From contig JBEKVI010000021.1 of assembly GCA_049514215.1 (NCBI GenBank), forward strand, positions 1 to 64,000: DNA of 64,000 nt. Direction: 5' to 3'. Position numbers and translations under genes: made by a program. Shown here piece after piece: positions 27,041 through 56,196 of the stretch. The notes under the pieces were generated by a model. That model saw only the letters and a list, made by a program, of their open reading frames with translations. It had not been told where the DNA came from and did not search any database. This DNA comes from Burkholderiaceae bacterium. GTDB lineage: Bacteria; Pseudomonadota; Gammaproteobacteria; Burkholderiales; Burkholderiaceae_D. Positions within the stretch are counted from its first letter, which is position 1; every line of letters starts with the position of its first letter.

Positions 27041-27409
27041 AACACTTTCCTTCCTTTCTTTTTATGTGCCGCGCGACTCGGGCGGGACCTCCCCACCCGC
27101 GCTCCGGCAATCCCAGCCTAGGTTTGCCGCCATAAAGATTCCGTAAAAGCCGACTGACGGCAGGCGGTGGGGGACCAGGAACCGGCAGGCACAGGCTTGG
27201 TGCCGTGAGGCGTGGGGACCGCGTCAGGGTGTTACTCGGGTGCACCGAATCGGTGTGGGATGCCCGCAGACGAGTCGCGCGAATGCTCGTAAATGGCGCG
27301 CTTCTTGCTAAACTGCGGGGTCGAATGCCATGGGGATCAGGATTCGTCCGAAACATTATCCAAGGACGGGCACTGCGGTAAGTCAGCGTCACAGATTTGC
27401 GGGGACTGC

Positions 27410-28837
27410 ATGTCGGGAAAGCGCAGCAACCAGTTTTTTGACGAAATGTCCGAGGCCGAAGGCGGAATCCGAACGCACTACCAGGCGTTCAAGAGCTGGC
27501 TCGATGGGCAAGGGGAAGAAGCGTTAACTGCCAAGCGCGCCGAGGCTGAAGTGATCTTTCGGCGAGTGGGCATTACCTTCGCCGTCTACGGCGACAACGC
27601 GGGCACCGAGCGCACCATCCCCTTCGACATCATCCCCCGCATCTTTCCGTCGGCAGAGTGGCGCCAGCTCGAGATGGGTTTGCGGCAACGCGTGAAGGCG
27701 TTGAACCTGTTCATCCACGACGTCTACCACGACCAGAAGATCATTAAAGCCGGCATCATCCCGGCCGACCAGATCCTGAACAATTCGCAGTACCGTCCCC
27801 AGATGCGGGACGTGGATGTGCCTTTGAACATGTATGCGCATATCGCGGGAATCGACGTCGTGCGCGCGGGCGAGGGCGAGTTCTACGTCCTCGAGGACAA
27901 CCTGCGGGTGCCTTCGGGTGTGTCGTACATGCTCGAAGACCGCAAGATGATGATGCGCCTGTTTCCCGAACTGTTTTCGTGTAACCGCGTCGCCCCGGTC
28001 GCGCACTACCCCGACCTGCTTTTGGATACGCTGCGTGCGGTCGCGCCGCAAGCCGGCACCGAACCCACCGTCGTCGTGCTCACTCCCGGGAGCTACAACT
28101 CGGCGTATTTCGAACATGCGTTTCTCGCCCAGCAGATGGGAGTGGAACTGGTCGAGGGGCAAGACCTTTTCGTCGACGACGGCTACGTCTACATGCGAAC
28201 CACCCGGGGCCCGCGGCGTGTGGATGTGATCTACCGGCGCGTCGATGACGATTTTCTCGATCCACTGGTGTTCCGGGACGACTCCACCTTGGGGGTGCCG
28301 GGGATTCTATCGGTCTACCGCCACGGCAATGTCACCCTGTCGAATGCGATCGGGACCGGAATCGCCGACGACAAGTCGGTGTATCCCTTCGTGCCGGAGA
28401 TGATCCGCTTCTACCTCGATGAGGACGCCATCTTAAACAACGTGCCGACGTATCAGTGCCGAAGGAAGGACGAGCTTTCCTATGCGCTGGCCAATCTCTC
28501 CCAGCTCGTGGTCAAAGAGACTCATGGCGCGGGCGGCTATGGCATGTTGATCGGGCCGGCTGCGACCAAGGCTGAAATCGAGAAGTTCCGTGCGGTCCTC
28601 ATTGCCAATCCCGAGAAATACATCGCTCAACCCACGCTCGCGCTTTCGGCATGCCCGACTTTCGTGGAAAGCGGCGTCGCTCCGCGCCACATCGATCTGC
28701 GTCCTTTCGTGCTTTCGGGCAAGAGTGTGAGAATGGTGCCAGGCGGACTCACCCGCGTGGCACTGCGTGAAGGCTCGCTCGTGGTGAATTCCTCGCAGGG
28801 CGGGGGCACCAAGGACACCTGGGTGCTGGAGGAATGA
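27410..28837 (+). CDS. Circularly permuted type-2 ATP-grasp protein (COG2308; DUF404/DUF407)
   Basis: MSGKRSNQFFDEMSEAEGGIRTHYQAFKSWLDG... Family signature in the ORF translation; first gene of a conserved ATP-grasp/alpha-E/transglutaminase operon. Confidence 0.85.
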   Translation: MSGKRSNQFFDEMSEAEGGIRTHYQAFKSWLDGQGEEALTAKRAEAEVIFRRVGITFAVYGDNAGTERTIPFDIIPRIFPSAEWRQLEMGLRQRVKALNLFIHDVYHDQKIIKAGIIPADQILNNSQYRPQMRDVDVPLNMYAHIAGIDVVRAGEGEFYVLEDNLRVPSGVSYMLEDRKMMMRLFPELFSCNRVAPVAHYPDLLLDTLRAVAPQAGTEPTVVVLTPGSYNSAYFEHAFLAQQMGVELVEGQDLFVDDGYVYMRTTRGPRRVDVIYRRVDDDFLDPLVFRDDSTLGVPGILSVYRHGNVTLSNAIGTGIADDKSVYPFVPEMIRFYLDEDAILNNVPTYQCRRKDELSYALANLSQLVVKETHGAGGYGMLIGPAATKAEIEKFRAVLIANPEKYIAQPTLALSACPTFVESGVAPRHIDLRPFVLSGKSVRMVPGGLTRVALREGSLVVNSSQGGGTKDTWVLEE

Positions 28838-28838
28838 G

Positions 28839-29822
28839 ATGCTAAGCCGGACCGCAGATCACCTGTTCTGGATGGCCCGCTACGTCGAGCGCGCGGAAAA
28901 CACGGCCCGCATGCTCGATGTCAATATCCAGATGTCGCTTTTGCCGCAGTCCAATATCGGGGTCGACGAAGGTTGGCGCGCCATGCTGGGAATCTCCGAG
29001 CTCCAGCGCGCCTACGATGCGCGCCACGATTCGGTCACTTCGCGCGAGGTGATCGAATTCATGGTGCGCGATCCGAGCAACAACTCGTCGATCCATTCGT
29101 GCTTGCACGCCGCCCGCGAAAACGCCCGCGCGGTTCGGGGAACGCTGACCACCGAAGTGTGGGAGACGCACAACGCCACCTGGCTGGAATTGAACAACCT
29201 GCTTTCCGGCAGAAGCCTCGAGCGCGACCCGAGCGAATTCTTCGAATGGGTCAAGTTCCGCTCGCACCTTTCGCGCGGTGTCATGATCGGCACCATGATC
29301 AAGGACGAGGCCTTCCACTTTGCCCGACTGGGGACCTTCGTCGAGCGCGCCGACAATACGGCGCGCATCTTGGACGTGAAGTATCACGGCTTGGCCGAAC
29401 TGGGACGGCTGGTCGAGCCCGGCAGTGTCGATACCAAGGGCGAGCCCGAAGTCAATATCCACCGCGACTTCTACCACTGGGCCGCGGTGCTGCGCTCGGT
29501 ATCGGCCTTCGAGATCTATCGCAAGGTGTATCGCGACGTGATCACGCCTGCGCGCGTGGCGGAGCTTCTCATCTTGCGCCAGGACATGCCGCGCTCCCTG
29601 GCCGCGTGCGTCCAGGAGGTCATGCAAAACCTGGCGAAGGTCTCCAACGACCACTCGGGTGAAACCGAACGCCGCGCCGGCATGCTCTCAAGCGAACTCG
29701 GGTACGGTCGTATCGAGGACATCCTGCAAACCGGGCTGCATGCGTATCTCACCAATTTTCTCGAACGCGTCAACGATTTGGGCTCCAGAATCAGTCGTGA
29801 CTTCCTGGTCTGGAGCCAGTAA
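28839..29822 (+). CDS. Alpha-E domain protein (COG2307; DUF403)
   Basis: MLSRTADHLFWMARYVERAENTARMLDVN is the canonical alpha-E N-terminus. 1-nt gap after the ATP-grasp stop. Confidence 0.85.
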   Translation: MLSRTADHLFWMARYVERAENTARMLDVNIQMSLLPQSNIGVDEGWRAMLGISELQRAYDARHDSVTSREVIEFMVRDPSNNSSIHSCLHAARENARAVRGTLTTEVWETHNATWLELNNLLSGRSLERDPSEFFEWVKFRSHLSRGVMIGTMIKDEAFHFARLGTFVERADNTARILDVKYHGLAELGRLVEPGSVDTKGEPEVNIHRDFYHWAAVLRSVSAFEIYRKVYRDVITPARVAELLILRQDMPRSLAACVQEVMQNLAKVSNDHSGETERRAGMLSSELGYGRIEDILQTGLHAYLTNFLERVNDLGSRISRDFLVWSQ

Positions 29823-29844
29823 GCACCCTCCTTAAGGGATCAAC

Positions 29845-32800
29845 TTGTCCATCCACGTCGCACTAAAGCATGTCACCGAATATCGGTACGACCGTCTCGT
29901 TGGCCTGTCGCCGCAGATCGTGCGTCTTCGTCCGGCTCCGCATTGCCGCACGCCGATCCTCTCCTATTCCCAAAAGGTCGAGCCGACCCAGCATTTCATC
30001 AACTGGATGCAGGATCCCTTCGCCAATTACCTGGCGCGCTTAGTCTTTCCCGACCGCACGCGCGACTTCAAGGTGACCGTCGATCTGGTCGCGGAGATGG
30101 CGGTCTACAACCCCTTCGATTTTTTCCTTGAACCCTACGCTGAGAAATTTCCGTTTCGCTACGACGCCGAACTCGCCCGTGAACTGGCTCCCTATCTCGT
30201 CAAGCTCGACGAGGATCTCTCGAAGCATCCGCGTTTCAAGTCGTTTCTGAAGAGCGTCGATTTGACCAAGCAGGGCACGGTGGACTTTCTGGTCGAGCTC
30301 AACCGCCATGTCCAATCGGACGTCGCCTATCTCATCCGGATGGAGCCGGGCGTCCAGTCACCCGAGCAGACCCTCGTTAAGGCCGCCGGGTCTTGTCGCG
30401 ATTCGGCCTGGCTTTTGGTCCAGCTCCTGCGCCATCTCGGTCTTGCGGCGCGCTTCGTGTCAGGTTACCTCATCCAGCTCAAAGCGGATGTGAAGGCCCT
30501 CGATGGGCCTTCGGGCGCCGAGACCGATTTCACCGACCTGCACGCCTGGTGCGAGGTCTATCTGCCGGGCGCGGGATGGATCGGCTTTGACCCTACCTCC
30601 GGACTTCTTGCAGGGGAAGGTCATATCCCGCTCGCCTCGACCCCGGAGCCGGGCAGCGCCGCTCCCGTGACCGGGGCCGTGGACAAGTCCGAAGTCGAGT
30701 TCACGCACACCATGTCTGTCACGCGCATCTACGAGTCGCCGCGCGTGACCAAACCTTATTCCGAGGAACAGTGGAAGGACATCCTCTCGCTCGGTGAAAT
30801 GGTCGATTCCCGCCTGGATGCAATGGATGTCCGCCTGACCCAGGGGGGCGAGCCCACCTTCGTGTCGGTTGATGACCGCGACGGGGAGGAATGGAATACC
30901 GCGGCGCTTGGCAAGACCAAGCGCGGCTATGCCACCGAGCTCGTCCAGAAGCTGCGCGACCGTTATGGTCAGGGTGGCTTTTTACACTTTGGTCAGGGTA
31001 AGTGGTATCCGGGAGAGCAGCTGCCGCGCTGGGCACTTTCGGTCTGCTGGAGGGCGGACGGGCAGCCGTGCTGGGCCAACCCGGCCCTGTTTGCCGACGA
31101 GCGCCTGCCCTCGTCGTATACCCCCGAGGATGCCCGGCGTTTCATCGATGCGCTAACGACGCGCTTGGATCTGGATCCGCGCTTCGTCATCCCTGGCTTC
31201 GAGGATGTTTTCTATTACATGTGGCGCGAGCGCCGGCTTCCGGTCAATGTCGATCCCTTCGATTCGCGCGTGGACGACGAAATGGAGCGCGAGCGTCTGC
31301 GCCACGTCTTCGATCGCGGCTTGAAAACCGAGGTGGGATTCGCGCTGCCGATCCGGGTGAACACCGACGCGCGTCCGGGACAGCCGCGCTGGATCAGCGG
31401 ACCCTGGTACATGCGCGACGAGCGCATGTACCTGTTTCCCGGCGACTCGCCCATGGGCTACCGGCTGCCGTTGGATTCGCTGCCCTGGATCACGCAAGGC
31501 GACCAGATCCCCAGTTTCGCGCAGGATCCTTTCGCCGCGCAGAACGCCTTGCCTGCGTACGCCCAGTTGCGCATGCAGTCCCCGCAGCATCTTGTGGGCT
31601 TCGGTCCCGGAGGTCTGGCCTACACCGGCAACGTGCACGGCGCCTCCGAGCCCGCGCTGCAAGAAGGCGCCTTGGCGGCAACGGGCCTGCCTGCCGGCCG
31701 TGGCGCCGGTCCGGCCGCCCCGGCCGGCGCCGGTGCGCGGCCGCCGGCTGCCACGACGCTTGTGCCAGCGCTTGATAAAAAGGAAGCGCGCATGCCGGCA
31801 CGCTTCGAATCAGCGGGCTGGCTCACGCGCACGGCGCTATGTGTGGAGACGCGCAAAGGCGTTCTCTACGTATTCATGCCGCCACTGACCGCACTCGAGG
31901 ATTACCTCACCTTGCTTGCGGCCGTCGAGATGACGGCCGAGACTTTAGGCGTGAAAATCGTGCTCGAGGGCTATCCCCCGCCACGCGATGCGCGCCTGAA
32001 ACTGCTGCAGGTCACACCGGACCCTGGCGTCATTGAAGTCAACATCCATCCGGCCGCGAATTGGGCCGAACTGGTGGATCACACCGAGTTTCTCTACCAG
32101 GCCGCGTTCGAGACGCGCCTGTCGACCGAGAAGTTTATGGTCGATGGGCGGCACACCGGAACCGGCGGTGGCAACCACTTCGTCCTGGGCGGCGCGACGC
32201 CGGCCGACAGCCCCTTCCTGCGCAGGCCCGACCTGCTGGCGAGCCTCGTGTCGTATTGGCACAACCACCCCTCGTTGTCCTACCTCTTCACAGGCCTTTT
32301 CATCGGACCCACGAGCCAGGCGCCGCGCATCGACGAGGCGCGCAACGACCAGGTCTACGAAATCGAAATTGCGCTTCAGGAGATCCACAAGCGCTCGGGG
32401 CCGGGAACGGTGCCTCCGCCCTGGCTCATCGATCGGACCCTGCGCAACATCCTGGTTGACGTGACGGGCAACACCCATCGCTCCGAATTCTGCATCGACA
32501 AGCTCTATGCCCCCGAGGGTCCGACCGGGCGGCTGGGCCTGCTGGAGTTGCGCGCCTTCGAGATGCCCCCCCACGCGCGCATGAGCCTGGTGCAGCAGCT
32601 CCTCTTGCGCGCCCTCGTTGCGGCTTTCTGGAAGAAACCCTACACCGCGAAATTGACGCGCTGGGGTACGGAACTGCACGATCGCTTCCTTCTGCCCAGT
32701 TTCGTCGCCTTGGATTTCGAGGACGTGCTCTCGGATTTGGCCGAGCAGGGTTTCGTGTTCCAGAAGACGTGGTTCGCCCCGCACTTCGAGTTTCGCTTTC

Positions 32801-33336
32801 CTCTTTTAGGCGAGGTCGCCGCACGCAGCATCCATCTGTCGCTGCGCTCGGCGCTCGAGCCCTGGCATGTGCTAGGCGAGGAGGGCGCAGCCGGCGGCAC
32901 GGCCCGCTATGTCGACTCGTCTTTGGAACGCATCGAGGCCAAGGTGACCGGATTTAACGACACGCGCTACATCATTACCGTCAATGGTCGCGCGCTCCCG
33001 CTCCATCCGACCGGACGTGTGGGCGAGTTTGTCGCCGGGGTCCGCTACAAGGCATGGGCGCCCACGAGCGCATTGCATCCGACCATTGGCGTGCATGCCC
33101 CGTTGGTTTTTGACATCGTCGATACGTGGAACAACCGCTCGCTTGGGGGTTGCCAGTATCATGTGGCGCATCCCGGGGGCCGCAACTACAACACGTTTCC
33201 GATCAACGCCTATGAAGCCGAAAGTCGCCGCCTTGCTCGCTTCTCGAGGCTTGCCCACACGCCGGGGCGGTTTGACGTGGCCGCTGCGGTGCGAAGCCTC
33301 GAATTCCCCTTCACACTGGATCTGCGCCATGACTAG
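29845..33336 (+). CDS. Large transglutaminase-family protein (Bact_transglu_N + transglutaminase core + DUF2126-like C-terminal region)
   Basis: 1163 aa. N-terminus HVTEYRYDRLVGLSPQ. Cys-His-Asp core (GSCRDSAWLLVQLLRHLGLAARFVSGYL ... DLHAWCEVYLPGAGWIGFDPTSG). Confidence 0.85.
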   Translation: MSIHVALKHVTEYRYDRLVGLSPQIVRLRPAPHCRTPILSYSQKVEPTQHFINWMQDPFANYLARLVFPDRTRDFKVTVDLVAEMAVYNPFDFFLEPYAEKFPFRYDAELARELAPYLVKLDEDLSKHPRFKSFLKSVDLTKQGTVDFLVELNRHVQSDVAYLIRMEPGVQSPEQTLVKAAGSCRDSAWLLVQLLRHLGLAARFVSGYLIQLKADVKALDGPSGAETDFTDLHAWCEVYLPGAGWIGFDPTSGLLAGEGHIPLASTPEPGSAAPVTGAVDKSEVEFTHTMSVTRIYESPRVTKPYSEEQWKDILSLGEMVDSRLDAMDVRLTQGGEPTFVSVDDRDGEEWNTAALGKTKRGYATELVQKLRDRYGQGGFLHFGQGKWYPGEQLPRWALSVCWRADGQPCWANPALFADERLPSSYTPEDARRFIDALTTRLDLDPRFVIPGFEDVFYYMWRERRLPVNVDPFDSRVDDEMERERLRHVFDRGLKTEVGFALPIRVNTDARPGQPRWISGPWYMRDERMYLFPGDSPMGYRLPLDSLPWITQGDQIPSFAQDPFAAQNALPAYAQLRMQSPQHLVGFGPGGLAYTGNVHGASEPALQEGALAATGLPAGRGAGPAAPAGAGARPPAATTLVPALDKKEARMPARFESAGWLTRTALCVETRKGVLYVFMPPLTALEDYLTLLAAVEMTAETLGVKIVLEGYPPPRDARLKLLQVTPDPGVIEVNIHPAANWAELVDHTEFLYQAAFETRLSTEKFMVDGRHTGTGGGNHFVLGGATPADSPFLRRPDLLASLVSYWHNHPSLSYLFTGLFIGPTSQAPRIDEARNDQVYEIEIALQEIHKRSGPGTVPPPWLIDRTLRNILVDVTGNTHRSEFCIDKLYAPEGPTGRLGLLELRAFEMPPHARMSLVQQLLLRALVAAFWKKPYTAKLTRWGTELHDRFLLPSFVALDFEDVLSDLAEQGFVFQKTWFAPHFEFRFPLLGEVAARSIHLSLRSALEPWHVLGEEGAAGGTARYVDSSLERIEAKVTGFNDTRYIITVNGRALPLHPTGRVGEFVAGVRYKAWAPTSALHPTIGVHAPLVFDIVDTWNNRSLGGCQYHVAHPGGRNYNTFPINAYEAESRRLARFSRLAHTPGRFDVAAAVRSLEFPFTLDLRHD

Positions 33337-33381
33337 GTCAGCGAGCTTCTGCCATCGCGCACACGTGGGTTACGACGGGCG

Positions 33382-35988
33382 TTGTCGGGCTGGTCCCCTG
33401 CGCCACCGATGCGCGAGCGCTTTGGCCTGATCGTGCCCAACACGCTGTTCCAGACCGAGGAGGGTACCGAGGCCGCAGCGACCGCAGCGCGGCTGGCCCT
33501 TCCGCCTAAGCCGGGATATTTCGACGAATTGCGCAGTGACGCGGCCCTGCTAAGGCCGACGTGGCAGCGCTTTTTTGACCTCCTGGGCTCATCGGGCTTC
33601 GCCGACCTCGATCACCGCGTCGAGGTCGTCGCGCGCCAGATCCGCGAAAACGGCATCACTTACAACATCTACGCGGACAGCGACGGACCGGCGCGTCCCT
33701 GGTCACTCGATCTCTTGCCCTTTGTGATCGACCAGAACGACTGGTCCCAGCTCGAAGCCGGCCTGAAGCAGCGAGCCGAGCTGCTCAATGCGATCCTAGC
33801 TGACGTCTACGGCGCGCAGCAGCTGCTGCATCGCGGTCTTCTGCCCCCGGCCCTGGTCAATGGCCACCCCGGGTATCTGCGCGCCGTGCGCGGGTTCTCA
33901 CCTCCGAAGGGCGTCTATCTGCACATCGCCGCCTTCGATATCGCCCGCGCGCCCGACGGGGGCTGGTGGGTGGTCTCCCAGCGGACCCAGGCGCCGTCCG
34001 GGCTCGGTTACCTCCTCGAGAATCGCCTGACGATATCGCGGCTGTTTCCCGACGCGTTTCGCGAGATGCACGTGCAGCATCTCGCAACGAGCTATCGCCT
34101 TCTGGTCGACAATCTGGTGCGTTTAAGTCCTGCAAGCGAGGGGGCTCCGCGCATCGTGCTTCTCACGCCGGGTCCCTACAACGAGACCTACTTCGAGCAT
34201 GCCTACCTGGCGCGTTATTTGGGGCTGCCGCTGGTGGAAGGAAGCGACCTCACCGTCCGCGAGGATCAGCTTTTCCTGAAGACGCTCTACGGCTTAGAGA
34301 GGGTGCATGGCGTCCTCAGACGTCTGGACGACGACTATCTCGACCCGCTGGAACTGCGCTCGGATTCGACGTTGGGTGTGCCCGGCTTGCTGCAGGCGAT
34401 GCGCTCGGGCAATGTCCTCATCGCCAATGCTCCAGGCACCAGCTTTCTCGAGTCGCCCGCCATCAACGGGTTTTTGCCGGCGATCGCACGCTACCTGACC
34501 GGCAAAGAGCTGTCCTTGCCTTCGCTGTCGTCCTGGTGGTGCGGCGAAGACGCGGCACGACAGCAGATCCTGCCCTATCTGCAGGATCTGGTCGTCAAAC
34601 CCACCTATCCGACGGCGAGTTTCGAGCCGATCATTGGTGCGAACGTGAGCGCTGGCGAAATCGAGAGTTGGCGTGCGCGTATCGACGACGAGGGCGCAGA
34701 CTATACGGTGCAGGCCTACCTGCCGCTGTCGCAGGCGCCCACCTGGACGGCCGGGCGCATTGTGCCGCGGGCGGCCATGGTCCGGGTGTTTGCGATTGCC
34801 AACGAGGAGGGGGGCTGGCACATCCTGCCTGGTGGACTCACGCGCATTGCAAGTCTGGATCAGCAGGTGGTCTCGATGCAGCGGGGCGGCAGCAGCCTCG
34901 ACAGCTGGGTGCTCACGGATGGGCCGGTCGATGCCTTTTCCATGCTTCCGCATCAGCTGGGGCCAGACGAGCTCGCCCAAAAGCGCCGACCAGTCTCCAG
35001 TCGCGCTGCAGAGAATCTGTTCTGGATGGGACGCTATGCCGAGCGTGCCGAGAACGCCGTGCGCCTCGCACGCGTCGTTCTCACCTGGCTTAACGGCGAC
35101 GAAGATGCACCGCCCCCGTTTCTGGATGCCCTGGGCCAGCTGTGCGTCTTGCGCGGCTTGGTCGCCGAGACCGTGCCTTCGCCTGCGACCGACGCCCGCG
35201 AATTCGAGCATGCGCTTACGGCCGCCATGGCGGACAGCCAGACTTCCACGAGCGTGGGCTTTAACGTGCACGCCATGGGTTATGCCGCAAGCCAGATCCG
35301 CGACCGACTCTCGCCCACCCACTGGAGGTTGATCCTGGCTGCAGGCGACGAATTCTTCGCCAAGCTTCGGCAAACCGCCGAGGAGGTCTCGACGGTGGAA
35401 GTGCTGCCGGCGCTCGAGTACCTGGGGATGCAGCTTTCGGCCATCACCGGTGCCCAGACGGATCGCATGACCCGCGATTCGGGATGGCGCCTTATGACCA
35501 TTGGGCGCCAGATCGAACGTCTGTCGAGCATGAGTTCGACTCTGTGGGCGTTGTTTCAGGACCAGGTGGTGCTGCTTGAACCCGGCTTCGATCTGCTGCT
35601 GGATCTGTTCGACAGCACGATCACCTATCGCGCGCACTACCAAAGGCGCCACGAGATACCCGCTCTTTTGGATCTGTTGGTCATGGACCCGGAAAACCCG
35701 CGCTCGCTTGCGTGCGTTCTCGAGGTGCTGCGCAACCAGATTCTCCTGCTACCGGCATCGGATTCCAAAAGCGGGGCACAAGCCGTAGGCGACCTGCTTG
35801 CGGTATTGCCCTTTGCCGGAGTCGGCATGAACCTCGAAGAACTCTGCGAGCGCGATGACCAGGGCCACTTCGTGAAGCTTCTTGCGCTCGCGAGTCGGAC
35901 GAGCGAGGCCGCGCGCACACTTTCCGACGAGATCGGAAGGCGTTATTTCAGTCATGTCGCCGAACCGGATCGGGCGCTAGCCGCATGA
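33382..35988 (+). CDS. Fusion protein: circularly permuted ATP-grasp (COG2308) N-terminal + alpha-E (COG2307) C-terminal
   Basis: 868 aa. N-terminal half parallels gene 27410-28837 (TLLTPGPYNETYFEHAYLARYLG, DDDYLDPLELRSDSTLGVPGL). C-terminal part carries ENLFWMGRYAERAENAVRLARV (alpha-E). An alternative start MRERFG lies at 33409. Confidence 0.8.
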   Translation: MSGWSPAPPMRERFGLIVPNTLFQTEEGTEAAATAARLALPPKPGYFDELRSDAALLRPTWQRFFDLLGSSGFADLDHRVEVVARQIRENGITYNIYADSDGPARPWSLDLLPFVIDQNDWSQLEAGLKQRAELLNAILADVYGAQQLLHRGLLPPALVNGHPGYLRAVRGFSPPKGVYLHIAAFDIARAPDGGWWVVSQRTQAPSGLGYLLENRLTISRLFPDAFREMHVQHLATSYRLLVDNLVRLSPASEGAPRIVLLTPGPYNETYFEHAYLARYLGLPLVEGSDLTVREDQLFLKTLYGLERVHGVLRRLDDDYLDPLELRSDSTLGVPGLLQAMRSGNVLIANAPGTSFLESPAINGFLPAIARYLTGKELSLPSLSSWWCGEDAARQQILPYLQDLVVKPTYPTASFEPIIGANVSAGEIESWRARIDDEGADYTVQAYLPLSQAPTWTAGRIVPRAAMVRVFAIANEEGGWHILPGGLTRIASLDQQVVSMQRGGSSLDSWVLTDGPVDAFSMLPHQLGPDELAQKRRPVSSRAAENLFWMGRYAERAENAVRLARVVLTWLNGDEDAPPPFLDALGQLCVLRGLVAETVPSPATDAREFEHALTAAMADSQTSTSVGFNVHAMGYAASQIRDRLSPTHWRLILAAGDEFFAKLRQTAEEVSTVEVLPALEYLGMQLSAITGAQTDRMTRDSGWRLMTIGRQIERLSSMSSTLWALFQDQVVLLEPGFDLLLDLFDSTITYRAHYQRRHEIPALLDLLVMDPENPRSLACVLEVLRNQILLLPASDSKSGAQAVGDLLAVLPFAGVGMNLEELCERDDQGHFVKLLALASRTSEAARTLSDEIGRRYFSHVAEPDRALAA

Positions 35989-36917
35989 GCGAGCGCCTTC
36001 AGACCCGGCTGCGGGTGGTGCACGAGACCCGCTACAGGTACGCGAGCCGGGTCGAATTCGCCCATCATCTGGCCTATTTACGGCCGCTTGAGGCGGCATC
36101 GTTCCAGATGCTCGACCGCTTTGGTCTGACGATCACACCGCGGCCTTCGTATCTTGCGGAGAACCGCGACTCCTACGGCAACGCGCGCGTGTTCTTCTCG
36201 CTCTATGTCCCGCATCGCGAGCTCATCGTGCGCGCCGAAAGTGCGTTGACCATCGCCGACCGCTTCGCCGGTGTCGATCTGGATGCGGGCATCAGCTGGG
36301 AGAAAGTGCGCAAGAGCCTGCGTTACGAGGCGGGCGAGCCGTGGCTTGAGCCCACCGAATACGTGTTCGCCTCTCCCTTTGTACTCCTGCACGCCGAACT
36401 GCGCGACTACGCCCTGGGCTCGTTTACGCCGGATCGACCACTGCGCCAGGCTGCCTTGGATCTCATGCACCGGATCCATGCGGACTTCACCTACGAGTCG
36501 GCCAGCACCGATGTCTCCACGCCGCTGTTGGAGGCGTTCCAGATGCGGCGTGGCGTGTGCCAGGACTTCGCGCATGTCTTCATCAGCTGCATGAGAAGCC
36601 TCGGACTGGCTGCCGCCTATGTGAGCGGCTATCTCCTCACGCATCCGCCTGCAGGCCGTCCTCGACTGACGGGGGCCGATGCCTCGCATGCCTGGGCCTC
36701 GGTGTGGTGCCCCGACCTCTCGGCCAACTCGGGATGGCTCGATCTGGATCCGACCAATGATCTCGTGCCCTCGATGGGGCATGTCGTTCTCGCCCGCGGA
36801 CGCGACTACGGCGATGTCGCGCCACTCAGAGGGGTGATCCGCGGGGGTCGCGATCACGAGCTCTCGGTCGCCGTCTCGGTCGAGCCGGTGGGCACACCCG
36901 AGTACTCCCAGCCCTAG
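35985..36917 (+). CDS. Transglutaminase-family protein (short form: Bact_transglu_N + core)
   Basis: VHETRYRYASRV...GVCQDFAHVFISCMRSLGLAAAYVSGYL...HAWASVWCPDLSANSGWLDLDPTND. ATGA overlap with the upstream fusion gene. Confidence 0.85.
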   Translation: MSERLQTRLRVVHETRYRYASRVEFAHHLAYLRPLEAASFQMLDRFGLTITPRPSYLAENRDSYGNARVFFSLYVPHRELIVRAESALTIADRFAGVDLDAGISWEKVRKSLRYEAGEPWLEPTEYVFASPFVLLHAELRDYALGSFTPDRPLRQAALDLMHRIHADFTYESASTDVSTPLLEAFQMRRGVCQDFAHVFISCMRSLGLAAAYVSGYLLTHPPAGRPRLTGADASHAWASVWCPDLSANSGWLDLDPTNDLVPSMGHVVLARGRDYGDVAPLRGVIRGGRDHELSVAVSVEPVGTPEYSQP

Positions 36918-36927
36918 TTTTTTTGGC

Positions 36928-38199
36928 TCAGGGATACAGGCCGCGTTCCTCCCGGGCCTGCAGCACCCGTGTGCAGGCCACCACGAACGCCGCGGTGCGC
37001 AGCGGTATGCGGTGCTGGTCGGCGGTCTCCCAGATGCGTTTGAGGGCGTCGACCATGATCCGGTCCAAGCGCACGTTGATCTCGTCCTCGCTCCAGAAAA
37101 AGGAGCTGAAGTCCTGCACCCACTCGAAGTACGAGACCGTGACCCCGCCGGCGTTGGCGATGACATCCGGCACGACCAGGATGCCGCGATCGCCGAGGAC
37201 CAGGTCGGCGTCCGGCGTGGTCGGTCCATTCGCGCCTTCGAGAACGATGCGCGTCTTGACGCGCTCGGCGCGGGCGCGGTTGAGCTGACCCTCGAGAGCG
37301 GCCGGAATCAGAAACTCGGACGGAACATCCCAGAATTCTTCCAGCGTGATCTTCTCTCCCCCCGCGAATTCGCCCACACCCCCTTTTTGATGGAGTTCGG
37401 CCATGAGGTTGGCGATGTCCAGGCCGTTGGGGTTGTAAATCGTCCCGGTGTGATCCTGTACCGCGACGATTTTTGCGCCGTTGCCGGCGAATAGTTCCGC
37501 GGCAGCCGAGCCGACGTTGCCGAAGCCTTGGACGGCGACGCGCGCGTTCTCCAAGGGAACATTCTGGCGGCGGGCAGCCTCGCGGCCCACCACGAAGACG
37601 CCGCGGCCGGTGGCCTTGACGCGGCCAAGCGAGCCTCCCAGAGGAACGGGTTTGCCCGTCACGACGCCCGTGGCGGTCGAGCCGACGTTCATCGAGTAGG
37701 TGTCCATCATCCAGGCCATGATCTCGGCGTTGGTGTTCACGTCCGGCGCCGGGATGTCCTTGTCCGGCCCGATGATGAGGCCAATCTCGCTCGTGTAGCG
37801 GCGCGTAAGGCGTTCGAGCTCCTTGCGCGAAAGCTCTTTGGGGTCGACGCGCACGCCGCCTTTGGCGCCGCCAAAGGGCAGATTCACCGCCGCCGTCTTG
37901 ACCGTCATCCAGGCCGCCAGGGCCATCACTTCCTCCAGCGTCACATCCGGATGAAAGCGCACCCCGCCTTTGCCCGGCCCGCGCGAGAGGTTGTGCTGGA
38001 CGCGATAGCCCTCGTAGTGGGCGACGCTGCCGTCGTCCAGTTCGATGGGAACGTCGACGACCAGGCACCGCTTGGGGCGGCGCAGGGTTTCGGCCCAGCG
38101 CGCGAAATGTCCGAGATAGGGCACTACGCGCTCTACCTGGTCGAGGTAGGTGCCCCACGGGCTGTTGGGGGAAGGAGAGACGTAGGAAAGGTTCGGCAT
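36928..38199 (-). CDS. gdhA: NAD(P)-dependent glutamate dehydrogenase
   Basis: Glu/Leu/Phe/Val dehydrogenase signature [11 protein letters not shown]. Rossmann [10 protein letters not shown]. Start at MPNLSYV. Confidence 0.9.
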
Positions 38200-38347
38200 G
38201 GGGCAACTCCCAGAATCGGAAATGGGCGCGACGATACAGGAGTTCAGGGGAGCATGTCCTGTTGCGTTGCAGCAAAGGAAGAGGGGAGCATTTGCCCGCT
38301 TTATTGTTAATCCGCGGTGCAAGCGTTGTATGGGACGCGAGTCTGGG

Positions 38348-38376
38348 GGTCAAACGAGACCGAAGGCGCCTACAAT
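38348..38376 (+). promoter_or_regulatory. Candidate sigma70-type promoter for the Anbu gene (GGTCAA-N16-TACAAT)
   Basis: TACAAT at 38371-38376, about 35 nt upstream of the ATG at 38412. The -35 match is weak. Confidence 0.3.
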
Positions 38377-38411
38377 GCCAAGATACTCCACAAGCATACC
38401 GGCTGGGCTTT

Positions 38412-39293
38412 ATGACTTATTGCGTTGCGATGCGCCTTGACGAGGGATTGGTATTTCTCTCCGATTCACGAACCAACGCAGGGGTGGACCAGATCAGCAC
38501 CTTTCGCAAGATGCTGGTTTTCGAGCGGCCATCCGAACGCGTCCTGGTGTTGATGACCGCGGGCAACCTTGCCATCGGGCAGTCGGTCCGACAGTTGATC
38601 GAGGAGCGGACCAGCGCCCGCGGCAAGAATATCTGGACCGTGTCCTCCATGGTGGACGCCGTGCGCTTAGTCGGCGAGGCCGTGCGCGATGTGCGCACGC
38701 GCGATGCCGAAGCGCTCACCGAGGCCGGCATCGAATTTAGCATCAGCTTCATCTTGGGTGGTCAGATCGGCAACGAGCGCACGCGCCTTTTCATGGTCTA
38801 TGCGGCGGGAAACTACATCGAAGCCCACGACGAGAGCCCCTACTTTCAGATCGGCGAATCCAAGTACGGAAAACCCGTGATCGACCGCATGATCCGGCCG
38901 GAAAGCTCGCTTGACGAAGGTGCGAAGTGCGCACTGGTCTCGATGGATTCGACTCTGCGCTCCAATATCTCGGTGGGACTACCGCTCGATCTTCTGTGCT
39001 ACGAGGTGAATTCGCTCTGTGTGACGCGCTTTACGAGCATTGACCATCGCAACCAATACTTCCAGATGATCCACAACACCTGGGGCCAGCGCTTAAAGCA
39101 GATTTTTGCCGAGATCCCGGACCCGGTTTGGAACGAGAACCAACCCAAGGAGGAGGGCAGCCGCAGGGCGGCCTTGGGTGAGCCGGTACGCGCGATCCTG
39201 CCCGAGTCCCTCGCCTCGCCCAATGAGACCGTGCCGTCGCGGCGCTTTCAGACACTCGCCGAACAGGAACCGAACACGACCCAGTTTCTCTGA
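38412..39293 (+). CDS. Anbu (ancestral beta-subunit) proteasome-homolog peptidase, Ntn-hydrolase T1 family
   Basis: Starts MTYCVAMRLDEGLVFLSDSRTNAG, with Thr directly after the initiator Met (Ntn nucleophile position). About 293 aa. Classically linked to COG2308/2307/1305 operons. Confidence 0.8.
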   Translation: MTYCVAMRLDEGLVFLSDSRTNAGVDQISTFRKMLVFERPSERVLVLMTAGNLAIGQSVRQLIEERTSARGKNIWTVSSMVDAVRLVGEAVRDVRTRDAEALTEAGIEFSISFILGGQIGNERTRLFMVYAAGNYIEAHDESPYFQIGESKYGKPVIDRMIRPESSLDEGAKCALVSMDSTLRSNISVGLPLDLLCYEVNSLCVTRFTSIDHRNQYFQMIHNTWGQRLKQIFAEIPDPVWNENQPKEEGSRRAALGEPVRAILPESLASPNETVPSRRFQTLAEQEPNTTQFL

Positions 39294-39326: not shown

Positions 39327-40115
39327 ATGGCGCTTGTCCAGTTTTCCCACGCCAACGGCTTTCCGGCCGGAAGCTATCAGACGTTTCTTGGGTATTGGCC
39401 GCCTTCGCTGAAGGTGCGAGCCGTCGAGCGTATCGGTGTGGACCCGACCTATCCCATCACCGACGGCTGGCCGCACCTCGTGCGGCAACTCGTCGAACAA
39501 ATCGAAGACGCCAGCGAGGCGCCGATTCTGGTCGGGCATTCGCTGGGAGGACTACTGAGCCTGCAGGCGGCCTATCGTGTGCCCAAGCGGGTGCGGGCGG
39601 TGATCCTCTTGGAAGCGCCGATACTGAATTCGCGGCGCGCGGCGATCTTCGCGCTCGCTAAGCTCGTTGGAATCGAAACACGCGTAACGCCAGCGGGCTT
39701 GACGCAGCGGCGGCGCGAGCGCTGGCCCACGCGCGCCGATGCGCGCCGCCATTTCCTGGACCGCGGCGTGTTTTCGCAGTTCGACCCCCGGGCACTGGAC
39801 GACTATATCCGGGCCGGGCTCGTCGATGACAGTCAGGGCGTGTCGCTGGCGATCGACCGGACCATTGAATCGAACATCTACCGCACCATTCCCCACACCC
39901 TGCATCGACTCGCCAAGCGCCCTTCGATCGTGCCCTTCGGATTCATCGGTGGCCGGCGTTCCCGCGAGATCGCGCTGGCGGGAGCGGCACTCTCAGAGCA
40001 GTTTTGCGAACCCCATTTTCGCTGGATCGACGGCACGCACCTGTTTCCCATGGAGCATCCCGAACAGGCGGCGCAGGTGATTGTCGATCTCATGGTCGAG
40101 ATGAAGCTTCTGTAG
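39327..40115 (+). CDS. Alpha/beta-hydrolase fold protein
   Basis: Nucleophile elbow GHSLGG. 262 aa. Only 33 nt after the Anbu stop. Confidence 0.7.
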   Translation: MALVQFSHANGFPAGSYQTFLGYWPPSLKVRAVERIGVDPTYPITDGWPHLVRQLVEQIEDASEAPILVGHSLGGLLSLQAAYRVPKRVRAVILLEAPILNSRRAAIFALAKLVGIETRVTPAGLTQRRRERWPTRADARRHFLDRGVFSQFDPRALDDYIRAGLVDDSQGVSLAIDRTIESNIYRTIPHTLHRLAKRPSIVPFGFIGGRRSREIALAGAALSEQFCEPHFRWIDGTHLFPMEHPEQAAQVIVDLMVEMKLL

Positions 40116-40208
40116 GCGAAACCCGGCAAGCGCTGAGCGCTCCGGGCTTGCAGAATTCGCTTAGAATCAGAACGTGCCGATGTAAGCCAACCCGTTTCGG
40201 ATGCCCGC

Positions 40209-41096
40209 ATGCCCCTCGAGCCGCGCCTTTTGGATGTCCAGTGCATAACCTCGGCCGGACTGCACCGGATGGCCTATGCGGAGTGGGGCGATCCGGCCAA
40301 TTCCCGCGTGCTCGTGGCCGTCCATGGCCTCTCACGCGTGGGTCGGGACTTCGACAATTTTGCGCGCGCCTTCTGCGACGAGTACCGGGTCGTCTGCCCG
40401 GATGTGGTCGGACGCGGCCGCTCGGACTGGCTCAAGAATCCGATGCTCTACCAGTATCCGACCTACGTGTCGGACATGGTGACGCTTCTGGCGCGCTTGA
40501 ATGCAAAAACCGTGCACTGGTTCGGCACCTCGATGGGGGGATTGATCGGGATGGGGATTGCGTCACTGGACTCCAATCCGATCGAGCGTCTGATTCTCAA
40601 CGACGTGGGCCCGGTGGTTCGCGTCGAAGCCTTGCGACGCATCGCGGAATACTTTGGCCGCCCGATCCGGTTTGCGAGCATCGATGAGGCAATCCAGTAC
40701 ATCCGCACCGTCTCGGCGCCCTTTGGGCCGCATAGCGACGCCGAATGGCGTTATCTTACGGAAATCGTGCTGCGGCGGGACGGCGAGGGCTGGGTGCTCC
40801 ACTACGATCCCCGGATCGCAGAGCCGTTTCGCGCCGACATGGCGGCAAATCCTGGACGGGGCGACATGCTGCTTTGGGACGTCTACGACAAAATCCGCTG
40901 TCCTACGCTTGCGGTCCGTGGGGCGCTCTCCGATCTTCTGAGTCCGCAGGACCACGAGGAGATGGGCAAACGCGGCCCGAAAGCGACACTGGCGACCATT
41001 GAAGGCGTGGGCCACGCCCCCACCTTCATGCATGCCGACCAGATCGCGGTGGCGCGGCGCTTTCTGGCGTCCGACGAGCTCCAGACCCATGGTTAG
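40209..41096 (+). CDS. Alpha/beta-hydrolase fold protein
   Basis: Nucleophile elbow GTSMGG, HGLSRVGRDF. 295 aa. Confidence 0.7.
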   Translation: MPLEPRLLDVQCITSAGLHRMAYAEWGDPANSRVLVAVHGLSRVGRDFDNFARAFCDEYRVVCPDVVGRGRSDWLKNPMLYQYPTYVSDMVTLLARLNAKTVHWFGTSMGGLIGMGIASLDSNPIERLILNDVGPVVRVEALRRIAEYFGRPIRFASIDEAIQYIRTVSAPFGPHSDAEWRYLTEIVLRRDGEGWVLHYDPRIAEPFRADMAANPGRGDMLLWDVYDKIRCPTLAVRGALSDLLSPQDHEEMGKRGPKATLATIEGVGHAPTFMHADQIAVARRFLASDELQTHG

Positions 41097-41460
41097 TCTC
41101 GGTCAGGGACCCGTCAAACGGCTTCATGTCGGACCGCGCCTGTCCGAGACGGCGATCCATAACGGCGTGGTCTACCTCGCAGGTCAGATCGCCGAAAACG
41201 AGGCGCCCACCGTCTACGAGCAAACGCGTGAGGTGCTAGGGCACGTCGACCGGCTGTTGGCCGAGGCCGACAGTGACAAGACCCTGATCCTGTCGGCGAT
41301 GGTGTTCATCAAGGATATGGCGCAGTTCAACGAAATGAATCGCGCCTGGGATGAATGGGTGATGCCGGGCCATACACCGCCGCGGGCGACGGTCGAGGCG
41401 CGTCTGGCCCGCGAGACGATCTTAGTCGAGATCAAGATTATCGCAGCGCAGTATACCTAG
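41089..41460 (+). CDS. RidA/YjgF/TdcF-family reactive-intermediate deaminase
   Basis: 123 aa (SETAIHNGVVYLAGQIAEN...PRATVEARLARETILVEIKIIA). Overlaps the preceding gene by 8 nt. Confidence 0.8.
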   Translation: MVSLGQGPVKRLHVGPRLSETAIHNGVVYLAGQIAENEAPTVYEQTREVLGHVDRLLAEADSDKTLILSAMVFIKDMAQFNEMNRAWDEWVMPGHTPPRATVEARLARETILVEIKIIAAQYT

Positions 41461-44584: not shown

Positions 44585-44620
44585 TGTGTTCCATGTGGTA
44601 TACCAGTCGGCGCCTCCCCC

Positions 44621-48265: not shown

Positions 48266-48267
48266 TC

Positions 48268-56189: not shown

Positions 56190-56196
56190 GGGCTTC

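Follow-up and report, generated by a model that had tools for sequence, protein, structure and literature searches.

Introduction

The conserved neighbourhood of ATP-grasp, Alpha-E, transglutaminase (TG) and Anbu genes has been described as uncharacterised in the comparative-genomics literature (PMC3235984, PMC6376114, PMC5666114, PMC2588565), and the locus studied here matches it, as its initial annotation had recognised. No function had been established for the system by 2021 (PMC8665760). Purified Yersinia Anbu was inactive as a peptidase and did not associate stably with the other proteins of its operon, and the ATP-grasp protein of the same operon gave only phosphate release from ATP (PMC6376114). 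In Mycobacterium tuberculosis, Rv2566 is a TG domain fused to a carboxylate-amine ligase (PMC2588565), and Rv2411c and Rv2567 have been assayed for one reaction only, with a negative result (bioRxiv 10.64898/2026.04.15.718621). The Burkholderia cenocepacia H111 genes I35_5080-5083 (DUF404/407, DUF403, TG and large TG) are strongly down in an ntrC mutant and are sigma-54 dependent (PMC5491218), and Pseudomonas putida PP_2685-2688 are induced by nitrogen limitation, which has been attributed to NtrBC (PMC7801951, PMC3235984). In marine metagenomes, the domains of the system co-vary with those of urea metabolism (PMC3597751).

Gene content of the five-gene run

The window, that is, the whole 64 kb stretch of DNA that was analysed, contains five consecutive plus-strand genes and an Anbu gene. 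Rechecking of open reading frames and start codons places them where the initial annotation had put them, and all of its domain assignments were recovered by Pfam or, for Anbu, by matches to solved structures. The first gene, g1 (27410-28837, plus strand), encodes a stand-alone circularly permuted ATP-grasp ligase of 475 aa (Pfam CP_ATPgrasp_2, 1.3e-166; CP_ATPgrasp_1, 1.4e-153), a length also called in the sister lineages L163 and L164. It is followed by g2 (28839-29822, plus strand), a stand-alone Alpha-E protein of 327 aa (Pfam Alpha-E, 2.6e-101); a search for a solved structure of this family found none. The next gene, g3 (29845-33336, plus strand, TTG start), encodes a large protein of 1163 aa that is 100% identical to an NCBI protein of the same length from a metagenome-assembled genome. 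At the N-terminus it carries a cysteine peptidase domain of transglutaminase fold, with the triad Cys184/His233/Asp249 (Pfam Bact_transglu_N, 5e-23; Transglut_core, 8.5e-17), residues 585-646 form a disordered linker, and the remainder is DUF2126 (E=0, 1333 bits), a carboxylate-amine ligase domain of glutamine-synthetase (GS) fold whose best fold matches include gamma-glutamylmethylamide synthetase and glutamate-cysteine ligases.

The fourth gene, g4, encodes a circularly permuted ATP-grasp domain fused to Alpha-E (33433-35988, plus strand, in an open reading frame of 33382-35988; Pfam CP_ATPgrasp_2, 4e-147; Alpha-E, 3e-59). Its most likely start is the GTG at 33433, which gives 851 aa, because conservation with the two sister lineages begins there; 33409 and 33382 are alternative starts. 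The N-terminal half of g4 matches PDB 3N6X at 2e-87; among solved structures this entry, annotated as a putative glutathionylspermidine synthase, is the nearest to the ATP-grasp. The last gene of the run, g5 (35985-36917, plus strand, 310 aa; Pfam Bact_transglu_N and Transglut_core), encodes a short transglutaminase-like cysteine peptidase of the triad type defined below, with catalytic residues Cys192/His235/Asp255 in alignment columns that are at least 95% conserved among 105 sequences. The 64 kb window has no transglutaminase gene apart from g3 and g5. The five genes are tightly packed: gaps of 1, 22 and 96 nt separate g1 from g2, g2 from g3 and g3 from g4, and the ATG of g5 overlaps the stop codon of g4 by 4 nt (ATGA). 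The gene order is identical in the two sister lineages.

The Anbu unit

Anbu (g7, 38412-39293, plus strand, 293 aa) is a proteasome-like Ntn hydrolase that reaches only 24 bits against Pfam Proteasome and matches the solved Anbu structures 5LOY, 5NYW, 5NYJ, 5NYF and 5LOX with E values of 4e-92 to 3e-66. Thr1, Asp17 and Lys32 are all present, and, unlike the solved Anbu proteins, this one has a tail of about 53 aa at its C-terminus. The initial annotation was right in placing this gene 1.5 kb after g5, but the interval holds a complete minus-strand gene for glutamate dehydrogenase (GDH; 36928-38199, 423 aa; Pfam ELFV_dehydrog, 1.4e-79; ELFV_dehydrog_N, 4.5e-56). The stop codon of the GDH gene lies 10 nt from that of g5, and 212 nt separate its start from that of the divergent Anbu gene. 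Since this opposite-strand gene fills the gap, Anbu is a separate transcription unit, 8.6 kb downstream of the g1/g2 pair. Its own upstream region has a conserved TACAAT box about 45 nt 5' of the gene and no sigma-54 site. Moreover, only 2/80 genome loci have Anbu no more than 10 kb from the triad, and the description of the module as capped by Anbu is not supported. The GDH gene occupies the same position in both sister lineages, and the divergent GDH-Anbu pair is also found in L083.

Two alpha/beta hydrolase genes (39327-40115 and 40209-41096) and a RidA/YjgF gene (41089-41460), identified by Pfam, follow Anbu on the plus strand and are probably co-transcribed with it as accessory genes. The order Anbu, two hydrolases, RidA is shared by L001, L002, L163 and L164; an alpha/beta hydrolase follows Anbu in 16/62 loci, and a RidA-family gene lies 3' of the triad in 12. 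As a separate observation, the neighbours related to nitrogen release comprise GDH, RidA and an allophanate hydrolase/amidase cluster.

Two ancient modules

The genes had been regarded as tandem duplicates. The paralogues are, however, only 24-35% identical (35% for g1 and the N-terminal half of g4, 24% for g2 and its C-terminal half, 34% for g5 and the N-terminus of g3), whereas each has orthologues in other phyla at about 60-80% identity, which makes the paralogy ancient.

Gene order in other genomes indicates how the five genes belong together. Whether the stand-alone pair is there or not, the gene for the TG-DUF2126 protein has the fused ATP-grasp/Alpha-E gene after it in 68 of 69 genome loci, and the short TG comes next in 67 of those 68, the contig of the remaining one ending inside the fused gene. 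The loci with this triad come from Burkholderiales, Pseudomonas, Marinobacter, Serratia, Verrucomicrobiota, Planctomycetales and Acidobacteriota. The position of the stand-alone pair is far more variable: among the 55 loci with enough flanking sequence, it is co-directional and upstream of the triad in 10, divergent and upstream in 18, downstream or elsewhere in 4 and absent in 23. In the flanks of the modules, neither a transporter gene nor one that would define a substrate turned out to be conserved.

The proteins themselves fall along the same line. Against g1, the stand-alone ATP-grasps that neighbour Anbu reach a median of 815 bits, compared with 314 bits for the N-terminal half of g4; g1 scores higher in 37/37 cases, and g2 is an orthologue of the canonical Anbu-operon type. 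In turn, g5 scores 411 bits on a model of the triad-type TG versus 222 bits on one of the canonical Anbu-operon TG. When contigs are anchored on Anbu, the canonical order ATPgrasp-AlphaE-TG-Anbu is found in 25/42 with enough upstream sequence; variants of the form ATPgrasp-AlphaE-Anbu-(TG-DUF2126) occur as well, and a single contig, L103, has a full super-operon. These comparative data favour a split into g1+g2, the canonical Anbu-operon pair, and g3+g4+g5, the triad.

A further result that is new here is that the canonical transglutaminase tends to be absent where the triad adjoins. The canonical short TG follows the stand-alone Alpha-E in 4/42 loci with a triad versus 29/38 without one (p=7e-10). 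This association survives lineage collapse at 90% and 80% identity and is gone at 70% (p=0.18), and it may reflect a few ancient events.

A probable nitrogen-regulated promoter

Also new is a predicted sigma-54 promoter with NtrC-type sites 5' of g1, of a kind that recurs at related leading genes. The promoter-like element TGGCGCGCTTCTTGCT (27294-27309, plus strand) matches the -24/-12 consensus about 100 nt 5' of the g1 start codon, is the only plus-strand sigma-54 match with at most one mismatch in the window, and lies inside the longest block conserved 5' of g1 in a phylogenetic footprint of three lineages. Sense-strand sigma-54 sites are found in 48 of the 137 upstream regions of related leading genes, compared with 4 on the antisense strand and, after shuffling, an average of 0.33 (at most 3); before internal g3 genes of the genome set there are none (0/13).

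Two enhancer-like palindromes of NtrC type, with no strand assigned, lie further 5'. The one at 27189-27203, GCACAGGCTTGGTGC, is an exact GCAC-N7-GTGC, the NtrC consensus; it is the sole exact copy in the 64 kb window and is kept in L163. The second, at 27242-27256, GCACCGAATCGGTGT, has one mismatch. Such palindromes are only moderately enriched 5' of the sigma-54 sites of related loci (at most one mismatch in 21/50 versus a background of 16%; exact in 4/50 versus 1.1%). The promoter fits the published NtrC/sigma-54 dependence of the Burkholderia cenocepacia and Pseudomonas putida genes, and the operon appears to be switched on by nitrogen starvation. A second sigma-54-type promoter precedes a Bmp-type ABC transporter, which also counts among the neighbours related to nitrogen release.

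Proposed working and alternatives

As the best explanation of the whole, held with slightly better than even confidence, we propose that two ancient modules, each of them conserved by itself, are combined at this locus and act in the NtrC/sigma-54 response to nitrogen limitation. The architectural and regulatory part of this explanation we consider very probable: gene identities, folds, catalytic residues, conserved order and promoter motifs come from the present analysis, and NtrC/sigma-54 dependence from the literature. Module A would be the remnant of a canonical Anbu operon, formed by g1 and g2, with its own short transglutaminase missing and Anbu in a separate unit; module B would be the near-invariant triad of g3 (TG plus GS-fold DUF2126), g4 and g5. 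What we infer is operon continuity, a shared transglutaminase, the substrates and the direction in which the chemistry runs. Genes g1-g5 would be transcribed as a single operon from the sigma-54 promoter with its upstream NtrC-type sites. Three ATP-dependent carboxylate-amine ligases, namely two ATP-grasp/Alpha-E units and one GS-fold domain, would make gamma-glutamyl- or isopeptide-type amide bonds via acyl-phosphate intermediates, and the two papain-fold Cys-His-Asp transglutaminase domains may hydrolyse or transfer such bonds. The g1/g2 ligase, which has no partner of its own here, is probably served by the transglutaminase of g3 or g5 as well, and Anbu, the hydrolases and RidA might work on downstream products. 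On balance, the system would let nitrogen-starved cells capture, recycle or release the nitrogen of peptide-like or gamma-glutamyl compounds or of proteins. That the chemistry is small-molecule or peptide nitrogen recycling, as opposed to protein tagging, we put forward only tentatively; strong induction of ATP-consuming ligases in nitrogen starvation does not by itself tell building from recycling.

The initial annotation read the locus as two complete paralogous sets, g1+g2+g3 and g4+g5, in a two-tier or heteromeric system of peptide ligation and tagging with Anbu as the terminal peptidase. The position of g3, in the canonical transglutaminase's place after Alpha-E, speaks for this, as do the recurrence of the five-gene order in 10/55 diverse loci, the usual lack of the canonical TG beside the triad and the few contigs where Anbu directly precedes or follows the triad (L085, L093, L103, L110; 6/62). 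Some functional coupling of the two ligase sets is indeed plausible from the TG counts, but the proposed membership is not supported: g3 keeps with g4 and g5 in 68/69 loci regardless of g1 and g2, which are canonical Anbu-operon orthologues, g5 is of the triad type, the pair is divergent from g3 in 18/55 loci, and Anbu, behind an opposite-strand gene, is rarely near the triad. We think that this reading is unlikely. The opposite position, that the modules are functionally independent, merely adjacent and co-regulated only as members of the nitrogen regulon, agrees with the many loci where each module stands alone, with their widely varying order and orientation and with the loss of significance of the TG association after deep lineage collapse. 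It accounts poorly for the repeated juxtaposition of the modules across phyla, for five genes tightly packed behind one promoter-like site and for a pair that is regularly without its own transglutaminase when the triad is present, and it seems quite improbable to us.

Two further alternatives concern the chemistry. In a pupylation-like system, the ligases would put an amino acid or peptide on side chains of target proteins, the TG domains would act as deamidase or de-modifying enzymes, like Dop, and Anbu would degrade or process the marked proteins, recycling amino acids in nitrogen starvation. No conserved small tag open reading frame is present at the locus, nor in the family's neighbourhoods (PMC2588565); no AAA+ unfoldase was found among the Pfam-scanned genes at 23.3-43.9 kb; Anbu is an open split ring without peptidase activity in vitro (PMC6376114, PMC8665760); and most triad loci have no Anbu nearby. 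We regard such a system as improbable. Alternatively, the product might be a small dedicated metabolite, either peptide-like or a thiol, of the same type as glutathionylspermidine or gamma-glutamyl-amines; the TG domains would then be proof-reading or recycling amidases, and the link to nitrogen status would be only indirect. The annotation of 3N6X and the fold matches of DUF2126 point that way, and the glutathionylspermidine synthetase/amidase of Escherichia coli is a precedent for pairing a ligase with a thiol-amidase. Peptide synthesis is also what Iyer et al. predicted, as cited in PMC5666114 and PMC3597751. Yet genes for precursor supply, export or tailoring are not conserved around the modules, and the regulon and neighbours indicate nitrogen scavenging and not a specialised product, which makes this reading rather doubtful, at the lower end of those considered.

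Comparison with known systems

Among the closest known systems are the Pup ligase PafA, the deamidase Dop and the actinobacterial proteasome. In glutathionylspermidine synthetase/amidase and the gamma-glutamyl-amine pathways (PuuA/PuuD, GmaS), a carboxylate-amine ligase that uses ATP is paired with a cysteine amidase for amide bonds of the same kind. Here the ATP-grasp resembles 3N6X, and DUF2126 resembles GmaS and glutamine synthetase; however, there is no family membership at the sequence level, and Alpha-E has no counterpart there.

Another is the canonical Anbu operon (ATP-grasp COG2308, Alpha-E COG2307, transglutaminase COG1305 and Anbu), known for example from P. putida (PP_2685-2688), Yersinia bercovieri and P. 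aeruginosa. Here g1, g2 and Anbu are clear orthologues, and the nitrogen-limitation/NtrC control of P. putida fits the sigma-54/NtrC-type promoter. The differences are that the whole window lacks the short transglutaminase belonging to that operon, that Anbu is displaced behind the opposite-strand GDH gene with its own upstream region, and that it carries the C-terminal tail. B. cenocepacia H111 I35_5080-5083 (BCAM1233-1236) likewise has a stand-alone ATP-grasp and Alpha-E ahead of a large protein under NtrC/sigma-54 dependence, but there and in locus L003 the canonical short transglutaminase is kept between Alpha-E and the large protein, whereas the lineage of the window lost it. Finally, g3-g4-g5 share the exact architecture and order of the Rv2566-type cluster, in which a TG is fused to a carboxylate-amine ligase and which is completed in M. 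tuberculosis by Rv2567 and Rv2569c. The locus is an already-described 'known-unknown', with two ancient enzyme modules joined in one probable operon.

Gene Content of the Locus

The locus begins with a stand-alone, circularly permuted ATP-grasp gene (g1, 27410–28837, 475 aa) and a stand-alone Alpha-E gene (g2, 28839–29822, 327 aa), referred to here as the pair. They are followed by the triad, which is formed by a gene of 1163 aa with a TTG start that joins Bact_transglu_N and Transglut_core domains to DUF2126 (g3, 29845–33336), a fused ATP-grasp/Alpha-E gene (g4, 33433–35988), and a short transglutaminase (TG) gene (g5, 35985–36917, 310 aa). Anbu, a proteasome-like Ntn hydrolase of 293 aa, is encoded at 38412–39293, and all six genes are on the plus strand. 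Checking of the ORFs and start codons found the coordinates of the initial annotation to be exact, and its domain calls for g1–g5 were borne out in HMM searches by overwhelming Pfam E-values. The start of g4 is most likely the GTG at 33433, which gives a protein of 851 aa, because the part shared with two sister lineages starts at V(A/P)NTLFQTEEG. The window derives from an uncultured member of the Burkholderiaceae; its g3 protein has 100% identity to a protein of an NCBI MAG, and the Cys-His-Asp triad is kept in both TG domains (C184/H233/D249 in g3, C192/H235/D255 in g5). The Anbu assignment also stands, although the generic Proteasome model scores this protein at 24 bits: residues 2–240 match the solved Anbu structures 5LOY, 5NYW, 5NYJ, 5NYF, and 5LOX with E = 4e-92 to 3e-66, and Thr1, Asp17, and Lys32, which come right after the initiator Met (MTYCV...SDSRTN...FRK), are invariant in an alignment of Anbu sequences. 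The catalytic residues of Anbu are listed as Thr1, Asp17, and Lys32/33 (PMC6376114).

NCBIfam has no model matching any of the six system proteins, Rfam gave no match anywhere in the window, and PADLOC gave none for g1–g5, Anbu, or the two alpha/beta hydrolases found behind it, leaving a defence role unsupported. Neither the g3–g4 spacer nor the leader of g1 holds a conserved ORF or element apart from the promoter block. Upstream of the locus, a 687-aa SPFH/Band-7 protein is encoded at 24977–27040, divergent from g1. A TatD gene (24028–24906) is located about 2.5 kb upstream of g1, and TatD is likewise found near the ATP-grasp gene in five contigs anchored on Anbu (L103, L119, L120, L134, and L145).

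Two Modules Instead of a Tandem Duplication

The five genes had been read as tandem duplicated sets, with g1–g3 as the first and g4–g5 as the second. The paralogues are too diverged for this, with identities of 35% between g1 and the N-terminal half of g4, 24% between g2 and the C-terminal half of g4, and 34% between g5 and the N-terminus of g3, whereas homologues of g3 from Burkholderiales, Pseudomonas, Marinobacter, Serratia, Verrucomicrobiota, Planctomycetales, and Acidobacteriota are 59–83% identical. Judged by these identities, the two ligase sets belong to paralogous families of ancient origin.

The division into sets was not upheld either when gene neighbourhoods were compared. For this, g3 served as the anchor for 80 genome loci and Anbu for 80 metagenome loci, in which all ORFs were classified with the window proteins. 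The search with g3 alone gave about 3,000 clusters (50% identity, E up to 1e-30). In 69 of the g3 loci the downstream sequence spans at least 3.8 kb; among these, the order g3-type gene, fused ATP-grasp/Alpha-E, short TG was contiguous in 59 and present with an insertion in 9, while one had nothing in the available sequence; the fused gene follows the g3-type gene in 68/69. The position of the stand-alone pair is variable: in 55 loci with enough flank it was co-directional upstream in 10 (the type of the window), divergent upstream in 18, and downstream or elsewhere in 4; it was missing from 23, among them every Pseudomonas locus and Serratia. The whole five-gene order of the window recurs in unrelated phyla.

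Orthology scores point to the same division. Stand-alone ATP-grasps adjacent to Anbu score a median of 815 bits against g1 and 314 against the N-terminal half of g4, with g1 higher in 37/37, and for Anbu-adjacent Alpha-E proteins the median is 440 bits with g2 but 20 bits with the C-terminal half of g4, which places g1 and g2 in the stand-alone, Anbu-linked orthologous group. Two TG models, a canonical one built from short TGs after a stand-alone Alpha-E and a triad one from short TGs after a fused gene, separate both classes cleanly, and g5 obtains 411 bits on the triad model vs 222 bits on the canonical one. There is no other TG gene in the window, so the canonical type is absent throughout. 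Genes g3–g5 have the composition of an Rv2566-type triad: a large TG-DUF2126 protein followed by a co-directional fused gene and a TG of the triad subtype. The near-invariant triad order, the variability of the pair, the orthology scores, the subtype of g5, and the lack of another TG show that the locus is a canonical Anbu-operon pair without its own TG, joined to a TG-DUF2126 triad, an opposite-strand glutamate dehydrogenase (GDH) gene, and an Anbu unit.

The modules are also found in other combinations. In the Anbu-anchored contigs, the canonical order ATP-grasp, Alpha-E, TG, Anbu was seen in 25 of the 42 with enough upstream sequence, and the order ATP-grasp, Alpha-E, Anbu, TG-DUF2126 was seen in L085, L093, L096, and L110. 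One contig, L103, carries a full super-operon of ATP-grasp, Alpha-E, TG, Anbu, TG-DUF2126, fused gene, TG, hydrolase, and RidA. A canonical short TG comes directly after the stand-alone Alpha-E in 29/38 loci without a triad vs 4/42 with one (Fisher p = 7e-10). Thus, part of the initial two-tier idea survives: the Set 1/Set 2 split behind it does not, but the scarcity of the canonical TG where a triad is present hints at module cooperation and suggests that a triad TG is able to serve the g1/g2 ligase. When each Alpha-E identity cluster is counted once, the association has p = 1e-7 at 90% identity, 1.5e-4 at 80%, and 0.18 at 70%; this loss of significance indicates that it may trace to a few old events.

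Anbu and Its Neighbours

Anbu had been described as capping the five genes at a distance of 1.5 kb. The distance is right, but the interval is not empty: it contains a complete minus-strand GDH gene (36928–38199, 423 aa), which is convergent with g5, their stops being 10 nt apart, and divergent from Anbu, with a 212-nt intergenic region between the starts. Therefore, Anbu cannot end a five-gene operon; moreover, it is found within 10 kb of g3 in just 2/80 g3 loci. Two further ORFs in the interval, at 36914–38353 (minus, 479 aa) and 37528–38310 (plus, 260 aa), were rejected as spurious, as they overlap GDH and match no family. Long spurious ORFs in wrong frames are typical of high-GC DNA, and the GC content of the window is about 63%. 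An order of eleven genes including GDH is identical in the two sister lineages, whose g3 is 81–83% identical to that of the window and whose GDH genes are at 9962–11233 (L163) and 17140–18411 (L164). The arrangement is therefore stable, and an assembly artefact as its origin is ruled out. A divergent GDH–Anbu pair is also present in an unrelated contig (L083, GDH at about 8572–9965). The position of GDH beside Anbu may be a further link to nitrogen metabolism, or merely local synteny.

The window Anbu carries a C-terminal tail of about 53 residues (241–293, encoded at 39132–39293), rich in Pro, Glu, Ser, and Asn, which the solved Anbu proteins of 240–251 aa do not have. Since Anbu is of 293 aa in the sister lineages too, and many tblastn matches in the Anbu-anchored set reach residues 285–291, this tail looks like a subfamily trait.

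Close behind Anbu, Pfam identifies two alpha/beta hydrolase genes (39327–41096, plus strand), a RidA-family gene, and a RelA/SpoT gene. The RidA/YjgF gene (41089–41460) closes the Anbu/hydrolase unit in the window, as in L103. An alpha/beta-hydrolase gene directly 3' of Anbu on the same strand was found in 16/62 Anbu loci (the window, L112, L115, L119, L120, L122, L125, L126, L133, L136, L147, L148, L157, and L160–L162); as published descriptions give the Anbu operon four genes, the hydrolase may be a frequent fifth member. A RidA/YjgF gene also comes right after the short TG of the triad in 12 Comamonadaceae-type loci (L005, L013, L014, L017, L033, L035, L039–L043, and L055, at about 17.0–17.9 kb). 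When the ORFs in the flanks were clustered, most of the groups consisted of spurious high-GC ORFs or reflected synteny at the taxon level, with no universal partner besides RidA and the hydrolases.

A Third Ligase Predicted in DUF2126

AlphaFold2 modelling of g3 gave a pLDDT of 48 with 12 close homologues, and a pLDDT of 88.9 with a pTM of 0.88 when 60 sequences down to about 35% identity were used, including representatives of the 50% clusters. The sole disordered part of this model is residues 585–646 (about 31597–31782), a variable linker between well-folded parts of DUF2126. In the model DUF2126 shows the catalytic fold of the glutamine synthetase (GS) type, and a Foldseek search returned the same fold families for it with weaker statistics. 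A sequence profile of 19 sequences run against PDB sequences matched TG domains and no glutamine-synthetase relatives, so that the modelled tie of DUF2126 to the carboxylate-amine ligases (glutamine synthetase, GCL/GCS2, PafA-Dop) is at the fold level only. An hhalign comparison of both DUF2126 halves found no internal repeat, and no solved Alpha-E structure was found. The ligase part of Rv2566 was assigned by Iyer, Burroughs and Aravind by profile work (PMC2588565), and the predicted fold confirms that assignment. DUF2126 is, by this model, the third ligase of the operon, predicted to be ATP-dependent. The operon would thus combine two thiol amidase/transferase domains with three carboxylate-amine ligase units that are predicted to use ATP. 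DUF2126 is also found in proteins of about 750–830 aa without a TG domain within the 50%-cluster library (P0146, P0155, P0160, P0163, and others).

Putative Nitrogen Control

The only plus-strand sigma-54 match of the window at up to one mismatch, TGGCGCGCTTCTTGCT, is at 27294–27309, about 100 nt before the g1 ATG, and this -24/-12 block is the longest conserved stretch upstream of g1 in a three-lineage alignment. The 370-nt region 5' of g1 also holds the only exact GCAC-N7-GTGC palindrome of the window (27189) and a one-mismatch copy at 27242, this motif being the NtrC consensus. Hence, the first gene is preceded by a candidate -24/-12 element with NtrC-type sites upstream (27189–27256), as in a putative regulon member. 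Across the comparison, a sense-strand sigma-54 match within 230 nt of the leading gene was found in 48/137 cases and an antisense one in 4, while composition-matched shuffles gave a mean of 0.33 and a maximum of 3. Matches precede 29/64 leading g3 genes and 0/13 internal ones in the genome set, and NtrC-type palindromes are moderately enriched upstream of the sigma-54 sites across loci. This shows that, across lineages, predicted sigma-54 promoters recur in both modules and would tie the modules to nitrogen starvation.

The GDH–Anbu intergenic region (38200–38411) has no sigma-54 match; it contains a conserved GCCTACAATG block whose -10-like TACAAT box is located about 45 nt 5' of the Anbu start codon and, on the GDH side, a conserved TTGC-N6-GCAA element. 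Simple sigma-70 and terminator scans gave no promoters, and terminator-like sites at chance level. Elsewhere in the window, a second sigma-54-like element, TGGCATGCCTATTGCA (60089–60104, minus), is found about 65 nt upstream of a Bmp/PnrA-type ABC transporter operon (54591–60026, minus).

Homologous clusters have been studied in other bacteria. B. cenocepacia I35_5080–5083 are listed as sigma-54 targets (PMC5491218), and the Anbu operon of P. putida, PP_2685–2688, is strongly induced by nitrogen limitation and has been assigned to NtrBC (PMC7801951; note added in proof, PMC3235984). NtrC/RpoN-dependent induction by nitrogen limitation is shown only for these two clusters, and by analogy it may hold for the window locus. 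Marine metagenomes show these domains co-varying with domains of urea metabolism (PMC3597751). The literature search found no GlnR link for actinobacteria.

Possible Chemistry

Our preferred reading is that of a nitrogen-starvation system that would make and break gamma-glutamyl or isopeptide-type amide bonds, the outcome being nitrogen capture or recycling. We favour it because of the regulon, the GS/GmaS-like and glutathionylspermidine-synthase-like relatives of the ligases, and the recurrent RidA, hydrolase, and GDH neighbours. The main rival is a pupylation-like role in protein marking, for which a tag and an unfoldase were sought: the intergenic regions of the locus hold no conserved ORF that could be a pupylation-type tag gene, and there is no AAA+ unfoldase among the Pfam-scanned genes at 23.3–43.9 kb. 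Together with the lack of a nearby Anbu at most triads, this argues for amide-bond chemistry. In other species, the ATP-grasp of the Yersinia Anbu operon releases phosphate from ATP, the purified Anbu of Yersinia showed neither peptidase activity nor detectable partners, and no peptidase activity could be detected for the solved Anbu proteins (PMC6376114). A single reaction was assayed with Rv2411c and Rv2567, and the outcome was negative (bioRxiv 10.64898/2026.04.15.718621).

We consider the most novel proposal rather improbable. The Anbu-type pair and the TG-DUF2126 triad would form one integrated nitrogen-starvation pathway with the TG domain in common, in which three ligases and two thiol amidases would act sequentially on protein or peptide side chains, as a Gram-negative functional analogue of pupylation that works without a tag; from there the products would pass to Anbu, the alpha/beta hydrolases, and RidA, recycling amino-acid nitrogen. 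A few kb downstream of the locus there is an amide-nitrogen release cluster (44573–50729) with an allophanate hydrolase (Amidase + AH_C), a second amidase, and an NMT1-type ABC transporter (binding protein, permease, ATPase).

Comparison with Known Systems

The Anbu operon is widespread, as is the Rv2566-type cluster. Pathogens such as M. tuberculosis, Burkholderia, and Pseudomonas carry them, and their function has been obscure since 2008; as late as 2021 Anbu was described as having no known function (PMC8665760). The window locus alone leaves that unsolved, and its value is in giving a sharper, testable picture rather than a surprise. The comparison sharpens the problem by separating the modules correctly and by a third ligase from structure prediction, and adds the recurrent putative sigma-54 promoters in both modules and a testable idea of a shared TG. 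If a nitrogen-recycling modification of proteins or peptides were true, it would be a new branch of the bacterial nitrogen economy and would give a physiological role to the proteasome relative Anbu.

Earlier publications already describe the two modules and predict their ligase/peptidase nature, and they also report nitrogen control for homologous clusters. The canonical Anbu operon consists of four contiguous, co-directional genes (ATP-grasp, Alpha-E, TG, and Anbu). In contrast, the window Anbu is parted from g2 by g3–g5 and the minus-strand GDH gene, and there is no canonical TG. What is particular to this lineage is thus a twist on the known systems, in which the canonical TG is lost, GDH inserted, and Anbu displaced.
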